From Promethearchaeota archaeon (lineage in GTDB: Archaea; Asgardarchaeota; Hermodarchaeia; Hermodarchaeales; Hermodarchaeaceae), in assembly GCA_048938295.1 (NCBI GenBank), contig JBHLMI010000022.1:14643-46642 (forward strand): a stretch of DNA of 32,000 nucleotides. Reading direction: 5' to 3'. The notes beneath the pieces were generated by a model that made no database searches, had not been told where the DNA came from, and saw only the letters and a list, made by a program, of their open reading frames with translations. Shown here piece by piece: positions 14,610-22,277 of the stretch; position 1 is the first letter of the stretch, and each line of letters begins with the position of its first letter. Position numbers and translations under genes: made by a program.

Positions 14610-14655
14610 TCACCACCATTCTACTTGACTATTCACATCATTTAGGGACGAAAAC

Positions 14656-18125: not shown

Positions 18126-19358
18126 CTACCCGGTAGGCCAATGTTGCAGTGCTTCGGCGAGTTCAGAATGCGATGCGGCATACTCTTCCAGAGTCTGCCC
18201 TGCCAAGGTTGCATCCACTGCTTGGCGCATAGCAGTAGCGCCAACGCGGGTGCCCTTTGGATGCCCATGGATGCCACCACCAGCCTGAATAACGCAGTCT
18301 GTACCGAAAATGTCGATGAGTGCAGGGACATGGCGTGGATGAAGACCTCCAGAAGCTACTGGTAGGGTTGGTTCCAAGTCTCCAAGAGGTTCTTTGCATT
18401 TGCGAATATTAGTTTCTACTTCTTCGCGATCCTCAGACATCTTCCCCACGGCGGTACCCACATGAAGTTGGTCAATACCTAACAGGCGGGATGCGGTAAC
18501 AATCACGGGCATCGCAATCCCATGGTAGGAGAGCTTTGTAAACGCGGCATGCATGGCACGATGACCGTGTAAAATCAGTTTGAACCCCTGACTCCGAAGG
18601 GTGGATACTGCTGAATACCCACAGGTCAGAATATCAACCATCGCCACCCGCCCCCCATGATCTTCGATGAACTGGGCCCGGTGTAGCATCTCTTGGGTTT
18701 CCGCTGTAACGTTAATCAGATAGATCTTCTTGTCACCGGTTTCATCTTCAGCACGGTCCCGTTGGTCAAGGGTAGTGATGACGCGATCTTCAAAGGGGTT
18801 AAACGCCTGGCTGGACAGGTTTTCATCATCTTTCACAATGTCACAGCCTCCTGCCCAGGCCTCGTATGCCACTGCTGCGTGGTCTTTGGTGCGTAACCCG
18901 AGTTTAGGTTTCACAATGGTCCCAACAAGAGGACGTTTACTGACTTTGACGGTTGTTCGGATGCCCGAAATACCATATGCGGGTCCTAGAAAACTTTTCA
19001 CCAGCTCCTTAGGAAATTTGATGTCGAGCAAGCGAAGGTACCGAAGATCTCCAAGTCCAAAGACATTCCCAGCCACAGAACTCATGATATTTGGTAGATT
19101 GCCGGGTTCGAAGAGTTCGATGGGGTAGGCAATTTGAGCAATGTTCTCGGTGAGTTCGAAGACCGTAGCAGCTAGTTTCTTCATGTACGGCTTTTCGGTG
19201 GTCAATTCGGTCCAGGTGCCAATGGAACTTTCGGCTGCTACACCCCCAGCCAGCCATTTCATGCTGCGATTTGGATCCTGTGGTTCAATGCGAAACGTAC
19301 AGATGGTATCGGTGGCTGAGGGAGTGTACTTGGGATTGTAAAAATCCTCATACTTCAT
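18126..19358 (-). CDS. rbcL: Ribulose-1,5-bisphosphate carboxylase large subunit, form III
   Basis: ESSIGTW, AGNVFG, GTIVKPKLG, DIVKDDENL, HGHRAMH, DQLHVGTAVGKM, SGGLHP and QAGGGIHGHP are all present. ATG 19358 with GGAGG RBS (410 aa). Confidence 0.95.
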   Translation of the reverse strand: MKYEDFYNPKYTPSATDTICTFRIEPQDPNRSMKWLAGGVAAESSIGTWTELTTEKPYMKKLAATVFELTENIAQIAYPIELFEPGNLPNIMSSVAGNVFGLGDLRYLRLLDIKFPKELVKSFLGPAYGISGIRTTVKVSKRPLVGTIVKPKLGLRTKDHAAVAYEAWAGGCDIVKDDENLSSQAFNPFEDRVITTLDQRDRAEDETGDKKIYLINVTAETQEMLHRAQFIEDHGGRVAMVDILTCGYSAVSTLRSQGFKLILHGHRAMHAAFTKLSYHGIAMPVIVTASRLLGIDQLHVGTAVGKMSEDREEVETNIRKCKEPLGDLEPTLPVASGGLHPRHVPALIDIFGTDCVIQAGGGIHGHPKGTRVGATAMRQAVDATLAGQTLEEYAASHSELAEALQHWPTG

Positions 19359-19427
19359 CAGCGATCCTCCACGTGGTAGAATGGCGACAAGTTGACCTAA
19401 AAGCGTTCGCATTGTCGCGCTCCACCG

Positions 19428-20276: not shown

Positions 20277-21050
20277 TTACTTCTGTCCCTTTCTAAGGTA
20301 GATACCCTGAGGATCTAGGGCACGAAGCTTCTCCAATTCCTGTTCCGTTGGTTCTGCAGTAGTGGGGATATCTTTGGGAACAATTAAGTCAAACATGACG
20401 TTCTCTTTCACCCATTCTGAGGTCACTCCAGGATGGACAGATTTTAGTCGAATCCGTTTGGTCTTCGGATCGAAATCCATCTGACACTTATCTGTGACAA
20501 CCAACGCTGGACCCCCGCCAATGAGTCCCAGTTTTTCCCGACTTCCCGGACCCGAAAGATGGCCAGGGCTAGTCAGATAATCAAGTTTTTTCACAAACTT
20601 ACGGGCATCATGAGTGAACATGAGGATAATGCGTCCTGCTGAACTTGCGATATCATTCCCTCCACCGCTACCAGGTAACCTAACCTTGGGATTTTCGAAT
20701 TCACCGATGTAGGAGGTGTTGATGTTGCCATATTCGTCGATTTGTGCAGCGCCAAGAAAGCCCACATCAACACGTCCACCCATCATCAAGAATCCGAGGG
20801 TTTCGATAAGCCCAATGGATGATGCTGCACGGAAACCCAATCGTGAATCGGCCACCGATAAGGCAAGGTCTTTGTTTTGTGTATCGACGTTGCCCCCTTC
20901 ATAAATGATGATTGCATTGGGGGCGTGGGTCACCTTTGCTAGCATGGCTCCAAGCACGGGAAGCCCTGTTCCTGCAAAGACGCGCTCACCATCTTTGACT
21001 GCATGCGCACCACAAACCGCCATCATTTCTGTCGAGGTATACTCTGTCAT
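20277..21050 (-). CDS. CoA-transferase beta subunit (glutaconate CoA-transferase GctB-like)
   Basis: VFAGTGLP, catalytic Glu candidate IIYE51GG, GFLGAAQIDEYGNINT, RLPGSGGGNDI and FVKKLDYLTSPG. Confidence 0.92.
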   Translation of the reverse strand: MTEYTSTEMMAVCGAHAVKDGERVFAGTGLPVLGAMLAKVTHAPNAIIIYEGGNVDTQNKDLALSVADSRLGFRAASSIGLIETLGFLMMGGRVDVGFLGAAQIDEYGNINTSYIGEFENPKVRLPGSGGGNDIASSAGRIILMFTHDARKFVKKLDYLTSPGHLSGPGSREKLGLIGGGPALVVTDKCQMDFDPKTKRIRLKSVHPGVTSEWVKENVMFDLIVPKDIPTTAEPTEQELEKLRALDPQGIYLRKGQK

Positions 21051-21065
21051 CTGGACCAGGTCCTC

Positions 21066-22009
21066 CTAATACCCATATCTGGGGTCTGCACGCAACTCCC
21101 TCATACGTTTTTCACCGATTTTTTTCAGCAGCCCCTCATGGCTTTCCACGCTAAGAATCCACTCATCCAAGTATTTCTGCCAGCCCTCCTCGGTGCTACA
21201 TTCTTTTACGTAATATTGTAAGTGGGGCAAATCATAGTCGTACACCCCATACACCTGCATGGGCCAACTCCCGAAGGGCAGTTCAACGACATAATCCACA
21301 TAGAGGCTGGGAATCATCGTCATATCTGGATTCTGTCGAATCTCCTTATTCGAAATGATTTCTTCAACGAACACAATCGACTTTTTCGCACATCGAGCGA
21401 TTTCGTTATCTTCACCTTTAATCCCAAAAATCTGGATGTTCCCTGCCTGATCAGCTTTCTGAGCACAAATCACTCCGAAATCTGCTTGAATTGAAGGCAA
21501 CAATGTAATCGGCATTCCCGTGAACGGACAGCTAATTACCTTGACTTTGTCCTTCCGAAGCCGATATTTTTCCATCATGTCTGTGCCAATCATATGGCGA
21601 ATCGGCATAAATGGCACATTCAAGGCCCCTCCGAGAAAACGGAGAGCCATCGCTAGGTTTGAGTAGTCTTCAAACTTAACCTTACCTTCTTTTGTACGCC
21701 GACGAAGATTTGGAGCAAGACCTAAGGCTTCGATAGCAAAGAAAGCCACTTCAAACTCTAAACACACCTCGGCTCCGACCAGGATTTCTTGACTATTAAG
21801 AAGACATCTTAATAATTATCAAGGTCATGTTCCGAGCCACATGTCATGATTCTAAGGTTGCGCTTGTTCTGGCGGATGAGTTCCATGGCGAAGGCTTCGG
21901 GTGGGCGTTGGTAGCCGAAGCCGCCCCAGGCGATGTGAGCTCCGTCGGGAACCAGTTTCGCTGCTTCTGTGAGCGTGATGCGTTTGTCTTCGATTGCGGG
22001 TTCACCCAT
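21066..22009 (-). CDS. CoA-transferase alpha subunit (GctA-like), two exons: 22009-21818 and 21785-21066, 303 aa after splicing
   Basis: Exon 1 (ATG 22009, GGTGA RBS) encodes MGEPAIEDK...DGAHIAWGGFGYQRPPEAFAMELIRQ...SEHDLD. Exon 2 continues ILVGAEVCLEFEVAFFAIEALGLAPNLRR...YSN...RFLGGALNVPFMP...HAQ-like CAQKADQAGN. The joined sequence HDLDILVGA is family-like. Confidence 0.88.
21786..21817 (-). other. 32-nt bulge-helix-bulge (BHB) intron in an mRNA
   Basis: Minus strand reads GAC CTTG ATA ATTATTAAGA TGTCT TCTTAATAGT CAAG AAA TCCTG: a 4-bp central helix CTTG/CAAG, 3-nt bulges ATA and AAA, and a 10-bp intron stem. Cutting after the 2nd nt of each bulge removes exactly 32 nt and restores the frame. 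Confidence 0.8.
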
Positions 22010-22277
22010 TTTTATCACCAAAGATAAGAGGTATAGTCCAAGGTGTGGGAAGTTCATATAAGGCTTGCTTCTGCATTATTACGGGTCGCGAGCCTTTTCT
22101 CGACTTTATTCTTCTTGTATTTGTCAGTAGGAGGAGCAATGATAGCCCATCGAATGGTATCATCTATGGTTTTGGTCAATATCCTTTTTGGAGACATACC
22201 GGACCAGATTCTGGATAGTAATTCAATCCTATTGTTATTTCAGTCATCCTTATTCCAAGATCCTCCCTTCTCAACGA

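Follow-up and report, generated by a model that had tools for sequence, protein, structure and literature searches.

The 32 nucleotides at 21817..21786 (minus strand) of the window, that is, of the whole 32,000-nt stretch of DNA analysed here (contig JBHLMI010000022.1 of a Promethearchaeota archaeon, positions 14,643 to 46,642), are very probably a genuine intron in the mRNA of a CoA-transferase alpha subunit, with a bulge-helix-bulge (BHB) fold that would be cut by the tRNA-splicing endonuclease EndA and sealed by the ligase RtcB. A preliminary description of this DNA, made from its letters, had proposed a functional intron; that reading now has the support of a junction that matches intronless orthologues, of covariation in the BHB, of dN/dS values of at most 0.05, and of EndA and RtcB genes in the host. 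We infer that the transcript is cleaved, ligated and, once spliced, translated. While the mechanism is known, novelty lies in the host gene, in the lineage and in the polymorphism of the intron within a genus.

The interrupted gene

The ORFs at 21809-22057 and 21066-21767 had been taken for the two halves of one GctA-like protein, and so they are by profile and structure matches. The exons lie collinearly on the CoA_trans profile PF01144, of which exon 1 covers positions 3-46 and exon 2 positions 78-216; the latter exon also aligns with residues 85-310 of glutaconate CoA-transferase subunit A (1POI_A, E = 2.6e-39). Exon 1 is 73-100% identical in amino acid sequence to its counterparts in 16 orthologues from genomes of the family, and 66-71% identical to those in two orthologues from another family. 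An intact beta-subunit gene of the same operon follows 15 nt downstream of the alpha gene. NCBIfam scores lie far below the equivalog cut-offs; these matches support, as the predicted product, a GctA-like alpha subunit of a family I CoA-transferase, an assignment that reaches the enzyme family and not the substrate. A distant paralogue lies on contig C2.

A TTATAT box at 22056-22061 (minus strand), ~50 nt upstream of the ATG at 22009, and a GGTGAT 8 nt before that ATG, both picked out by eye, look like the operon's promoter and ribosome-binding site; their placement would make ATG 22009, and not ATG 22057, the start of the protein. Elsewhere in the window a 428-aa ORF (18126-19412, minus strand) resembles, also as judged by eye, the large subunit of form III RuBisCO.

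The preliminary description had expected annotation pipelines to mistreat the gene, and public calls do split it, into a 63-74-aa ORF and a 238- or 245-aa product. Among the 23 closest protein clusters six have one or the other of these two lengths and the others are 301-303 aa long; on the contigs of the truncated proteins the short ORF lies directly upstream and the beta subunit comes after, and the truncated product is labelled 'glutaconate CoA-transferase subunit A'.

Table 1. Coordinates of the CoA-transferase gene and its predicted BHB, of further alleles, and of two other candidate introns in the same genome; features located by position numbers alone lie in the window, and an arrow marks a predicted cut.
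Feature	Location	Strand	Remarks
CoA-transferase alpha gene (GctA-like), exon 1	21818..22009	-	64 codons from ATG 22009
CoA-transferase alpha gene, exon 2	21066..21785	-	239 codons + stop
CoA-transferase beta subunit gene	20277..21050	-	PF01144 E = 3e-31; TIGR02428 subunit B family
Predicted BHB intron, 32 nt	21786..21817	-	phase 0, between D64 and I65; single copy in genome
Central helix, 5' strand CUUG	21820..21823	-	exon 1: Leu codon + G of Asp codon
Central helix, 3' strand CAAG	21788..21791	-	intron 3' end
5' bulge AU↓A	21817..21819	-	predicted cut after 21818
3' bulge AA↓A	21785..21787	-	predicted cut after 21786; opposite unpaired exon-1 nucleotide 21824
Inner hairpin	21792..21816	-	10-bp stem, 21816-21807 with 21801-21792; 5-nt loop 21806-21802
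Outer helix, 5' strand, exon 1	21825..21839	-	compensatory pair at columns 5-69
Outer helix, 3' strand, exon 2	21770..21784	-	pairs with 21839-21825; long imperfect helix
Partial fifth allele	L071:1-31 (metagenome contig Ga0209635_10111875)		contig starts inside insert; apical core as in G011
Sixth allele, 31 nt	L085:388-418 (Logan contig)		central helix CUCG/CGGG
Predicted dnaG BHB intron, 28 nt	G000:C35:27203-27230 (L041:1704-1731)	-	phase 1; found by strict scan
cbf5 insert, 40 nt	G000:C9:3456-3495 (L066:1419-1458)	+	between GIINLD and KPPGPTSHEV; read in the sequence

The insert and its predicted fold

With 7 G+C the insert is 22% GC; it carries an in-frame TAA (21811-21809), and its length (32 mod 3 = 2) puts what follows out of frame. 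Only 66 aa can be read from the unspliced frame; cuts placed by the EndA rule leave one of 303 aa, collinear with the intronless orthologues. The predicted junction has ...GACCTTGAT on its exon 1 side, where the exon ends ...CAT GAC CTT GAT, and ATCCTGGTC... on its exon 2 side, and would read GAU↓AUC, HDLD↓ILVGA, once spliced. There is no direct repeat at the flanks of the insert beyond a 1-nt A ambiguity, no second copy of the 32-mer in the window or in the 2.5-Mb genome, and no match in Rfam for 21600-22000 at E up to 1. The length, base composition, stop codon and frameshift originally described, together with the absence of a target-site duplication, are all as read in the sequence.

The 86-nt fold of the region has an energy of -29.7 kcal/mol (z = -4.3), and 0 of 200 shuffled sequences fold as well. 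The elements of the BHB first drawn by inspection (CUUG paired with CAAG, AUA and AAA bulges, 10-bp stem, 5-nt loop) were all found again, with one refinement that concerns the 3' side. The outer helix (12-13 pairs at 15 positions; the inner one has 10 bp) begins past one unpaired exon-1 nucleotide, and the 3' side is a 1x3 internal loop in which alleles with U at this place could shrink the bulge to 2 nt. Because the 3' bulge faces that unpaired nucleotide, the motif is slightly relaxed on its 3' side rather than strictly canonical; a slightly relaxed BHB of such a kind is accepted by (alpha-beta)2 EndA (PMC5829648). The minimum free energy (MFE) structure, in which the 5' bulge is slid by 2 nt, is favoured over the strict BHB form by 1.3 kcal/mol.

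Alleles in related genomes

Forty related genomes were searched with exon 2, both exons being placed by tblastn, and 18 orthologues were compared. In 4 of the 18, all of one genus, an insert lies exactly between D64 and I65: it measures 32 nt in the present genome (G000) and in G009, 34 nt in G004 and 35 nt in G011. The other 14, 12 from the family and two from another family, are uninterrupted and match the predicted spliced junction base for base, so that the EndA rule, applied to the fold, removes exactly 21817-21786, as had been claimed: its cut sites are the very boundaries that the intronless orthologues set. Two more alleles come from metagenome DNA (Table 1), the 31-nt one on a Logan contig picked for its truncated public protein, and the DNA behind one truncated public protein carries the same intron as G011. 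The complete inserts (31, 32, 32, 34 and 35 nt) differ greatly in sequence, none has a length that is a multiple of 3, and each of the four in the compared genomes contains an in-frame stop; with off-frame lengths and in-frame stops, none of them can be read through. In every complete allele, at 31, 32, 34 or 35 nt, the BHB cut rule restores the frame.

The preliminary description had called for an alignment of orthologues, in search of uninterrupted alleles and of compensatory changes that preserve the BHB, and the alignment has both. The central helix occurs as CUUG/CAAG, CUGG/CUAG, UUGG/CCAG and CUCG/CGGG, which implies that the synonymous Leu codon of exon 1 covaries with the 3' end of the intron; the third position of this codon takes part in four types of pair. 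In the alignment of the alleles (A1) 89% of cells are paired, vs 28-48% when the partners are slid against each other; its central and apical helices are 100% paired (the apical AGA/UCU stem in 4/4 complete alleles), and the outer, central and apical helices each have double-sided changes, among them a compensatory pair in the central helix at columns 19-53. One compensation in the outer helix links a Ser codon with a Gly codon. At the 15 outer-helix positions the four intron alleles have 12-13 pairs vs 7-10 in the 14 intronless ones, and for five alleles the BHB fold is at the MFE or within 1.6 kcal/mol of it. With five complete alleles and a partial one, all mutually related, the covariation rests on few events; in the sequences compared, these all point the same way.

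Splicing machinery of the host

The host, an Asgard archaeon of the Hermodarchaeota, has genes for two EndA paralogues (PF01974; G000:C1 and G000:C19) and one RtcB (PF01139), all scoring above cut-offs. One EndA paralogue resembles the catalytic alpha subunit of Aeropyrum pernix EndA (3P1Z_B, E = 2e-45); the second, a divergent one, has structural beta chains among its matches. By these PDB matches the pair would be one alpha-like and one beta-like chain, which fits an (alpha-beta)2 enzyme, and Asgard EndA has been reported as (alpha-beta)2 with a broad-specificity L1 loop (PMC5829648).

The genome is rich in tRNA introns: ARAGORN finds only 30 tRNAs and calls introns in 12 of them, and some of these 'introns' are implausibly long, at 432-1430 nt. 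These results suggest non-canonical interruption sites or large inserts in many tRNA genes; the counts agree with a recent preprint in which Asgard tRNA genes are heavily interrupted (10.64898/2026.10.13.758758).

Proposed splicing pathway and alternative readings

In the proposed pathway the CUUG of exon 1 would pair, in the pre-mRNA, with the CAAG at the 3' end of the intron, forming a 4-bp helix between two 3-nt bulges; this helix would sit between the hairpin of the intron and an imperfect helix of exon 1 with exon 2. A heterotetrameric (alpha-beta)2 EndA would cut after the second base of each bulge, RtcB would join the exons to ...GAU↓AUC..., opening the way to a 303-aa protein, and RtcB would probably also circularise the 32-mer. 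Ribosomes that enter the intron of an unspliced RNA would reach a stop after two codons of it. Since archaea couple translation to transcription, part of the message would be read before splicing and yield a 66-aa fragment. That the intron ties CoA-transferase output to tRNA-splicing capacity, as has also been proposed, is pure speculation.

Several readings dispense with productive splicing, and they are disfavoured because covariation, frame-restoring cuts across different lengths and purifying selection are left unexplained by them. The first does without splicing altogether: the gene would be expressed as a 66-aa N-terminal piece and a 233-aa C-terminal piece started at GTG 21767, or else ribosomes would bypass the insert as they do in gene 60 of phage T4. 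A purine-rich stretch does precede the GTG that opens the 233-aa ORF, but the GTG and the bases upstream of it are ordinary conserved coding sequence, present in intronless alleles too. The stable hairpin and the stop codon right after the break are as expected of translational bypass, but the take-off and landing codons do not match (GAU vs ...GAA AUC), and bypass was rejected on this ground and on that of the unexplained covariation. Neither version of this improbable reading accounts for the covariation of the Leu codon with the intron's 3' end, for the better exon-exon outer helix of the intron alleles, or for the restoration of the frame by the BHB cut rule at every length from 31 to 35 nt.

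The second possibility is that a hairpin-forming insertion inactivated the alpha gene and that the geometry of the BHB is coincidental. A frame that stops after 66 aa, gene callers that split the gene, a majority of relatives without the insert and a distant paralogue on contig C2 that could compensate for a loss are what one would expect of a pseudogene. Against this, the same-site inserts of six alleles differ in sequence and length and keep their 4-bp helix by compensation, the exons have neither stops nor indels and a dN/dS of at most 0.05, also between intron-bearing alleles, the beta gene downstream is intact, and the single-copy insert is not a MITE; inactivation is accordingly very improbable. 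Just as small a probability attaches to a real BHB that EndA cuts mainly as a switch for mRNA cleavage and decay, with little productive ligation. EndA does cut substrates other than tRNA (the 5' UTR of HVO_1309 in Haloferax is one; PMC7714728), and most relatives dispense with the intron, but the exact restoration of the frame in every complete allele is expected only if ligation matters, and purifying selection persists on exon 1. An artefact of assembly or binning, for which one might cite the short-read origin of this metagenome-assembled genome (MAG) and the AT-rich, palindromic insert, has a negligible probability: the check for it, called for at the outset, found that Logan contigs of three DNA runs (two may be from the source sample; the third contributes one 411-nt contig from another sample) span the 32 nt without a variant and include no joined, insert-less form, and that several independently assembled genomes and contigs are interrupted at the same site.

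Selection and history of the probable intron

The exons are free of stops and indels in their spliced frames. Between alleles dN is 0.05-0.14 and dS is at least 0.9 or saturated; dN/dS, where computable, is 0.02-0.05, and this range includes the comparison of G000 with G009, both of which bear the intron. Low dN/dS between intron-bearing alleles implies that the gene stayed functional while it carried the insert.

In a maximum-likelihood tree the intron alleles do not form one clade (AU p = 7.6e-5), and G004, with the intron, is sister to G003, without it, at 100% support; judged by this tree, members of the genus differ in whether they have the intron, a distribution that would take no fewer than three gains or losses. 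An apical core AGAUGnnUUCU, common to three alleles, is suggestive of one origin with precise losses thereafter; alternatively, the intron may have been gained or transferred repeatedly. Most relatives being without it, the intron is dispensable and could be mildly deleterious. A search for a recombination tract around the intron was uninformative: identity near the junction, compared with the rest of the gene, follows a weak trend only, which is compatible with structural constraint. An origin from a mobile repeat was rejected, since the apical motif UAGAUGnnUUCUA is not enriched (16 genome hits vs 11 for the reversed control) and each intron is single copy.

A more far-reaching notion, and a rather doubtful one, is that BHB introns still move in and out of Asgard protein-coding genes: the CoA-transferase intron would be polymorphic because it is young and belongs to a population that is still spreading, whose members could settle only where the end of an exon complements the intron's 3' end; such introns may also gate expression through splicing capacity. 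If this were true, the genus would be a natural system in which to watch introns come and go among the prokaryotes most closely related to eukaryotes.

Relation to known introns

The closest precedent is the intron of the crenarchaeal cbf5 pre-mRNA, the splicing of which has been shown experimentally (Watanabe et al. 2002; Yokobori et al. 2009, PMC2738675). Both are short BHB introns in protein-coding sequence that use tRNA-splicing endonuclease and ligase (as predicted, in the present case); the hosts of both have an (alpha-beta)2 EndA by type, the alpha paralogue here being closest to that of Aeropyrum pernix; and both have a patchy distribution that lineage-specific loss would account for and mislead gene prediction. 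They differ in that cbf5 encodes an RNA-modification enzyme, whereas the gene interrupted here encodes a subunit of a metabolic enzyme; in that the present host is an Asgard archaeon and not a crenarchaeote, with an intron that is polymorphic among the species of one genus; and in that splicing of the CoA-transferase intron is predicted from sequence. A full-text literature search found coding-sequence BHB introns only for crenarchaeal cbf5 (PMC2738675) and none for Asgard mRNAs, and cbf5 has been named the only other example of such an archaeal mRNA intron (PMC7714728).

With the BHB introns of pre-tRNA and pre-rRNA the CoA-transferase intron shares its 4-bp helix, its two 3-nt bulges, the predicted cuts at the second base, the predicted enzymes and a similar size range, but its substrate is an mRNA, open to translation even before it is spliced. 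On the exon side its helices must double as protein-coding sequence, so that covariation runs through synonymous codon positions. An mRNA has been shown to be a substrate of EndA, as is predicted here, in Haloferax volcanii, where the BHB intron in the 5' UTR of HVO_1309 is processed in vivo and in vitro (Schwarz et al. 2020, PMC7714728); that intron lies in a UTR and leaves the reading frame uninterrupted, and the EndA of its host is a homodimeric alpha'2 enzyme of strict specificity.

The intron also bears a likeness to those of HAC1 and XBP1, which eukaryotes splice unconventionally, in a stress-regulated manner, by IRE1 cleavage and ligation by RtcB in animals or Trl1 in yeast: the scheme is alike, with a small intron inside a reading frame, stem-loops where an endonuclease cuts, sealing by a tRNA ligase and a frame that splicing changes. 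IRE1 and its motif are different, however, and the CoA-transferase intron falls outside that system. What it would add is the extension of endonuclease-spliced coding introns to a gene of ordinary metabolism, in the archaeal group that stands nearest to eukaryotes; and closely related species that differ in the intron allow precise loss or gain, and structure-driven selection at synonymous sites, to be studied directly.

Other candidate introns in the genome

The whole genome was scanned for strict BHB motifs that, once removed, leave two frames of coding potential joined; among the 111 survivors the CoA-transferase site ranked first by structure, which speaks against a chance likeness. This strict scan also found a candidate intron in dnaG (Table 1), with a central helix GCCU/GGGU and a 9-bp stem; exon 1 of that gene corresponds to positions 1-30 of the DnaG model NF003108 and exon 2 to positions 32-419. 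The dnaG intron, 28-31 nt in length, is present in 18/18 genomes of the family and in 0/6 of the other-family genomes examined, and its alignment has 96.6% of cells paired and 3 compensatory pairs. That this genome would need mRNA splicing in another gene too favours the intron reading of the CoA-transferase insert. On the unspliced gene callers would start at the GTG at L041:1761 and lose the conserved 41-aa N-terminus; metabolic reconstructions of such MAGs may similarly mis-score split genes as broken.

The insert in cbf5 has boundaries (CUGG AU↓...CCAG AA↓) nearly those of the CoA-transferase intron; the strict scan missed it because the inner helix is mismatched at its second pair. A relaxed scan, with one inner-helix mismatch allowed and an exon 1 of at least 20 codons, returned 357 candidates, mostly gene junctions. 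Apart from one in a GNAT gene, the other candidates of the strict scan were set aside by eye as ordinary gene junctions: Mre11 with a Rad50-like gene, the beta and alpha subunits of succinyl-CoA synthetase, ribosomal proteins L4 and L23, or a formylmethanofuran-dehydrogenase-like gene and the one next to it. The candidate in the GNAT acetyltransferase gene (G000:C50:11185-11235, minus strand) was likewise rejected as an intron, the gene having instead an in-frame TAG within conserved coding sequence (between ...GYPSS and TWTFSFQAPEFY...), which could mark a pseudogene, a sequencing error or recoding.
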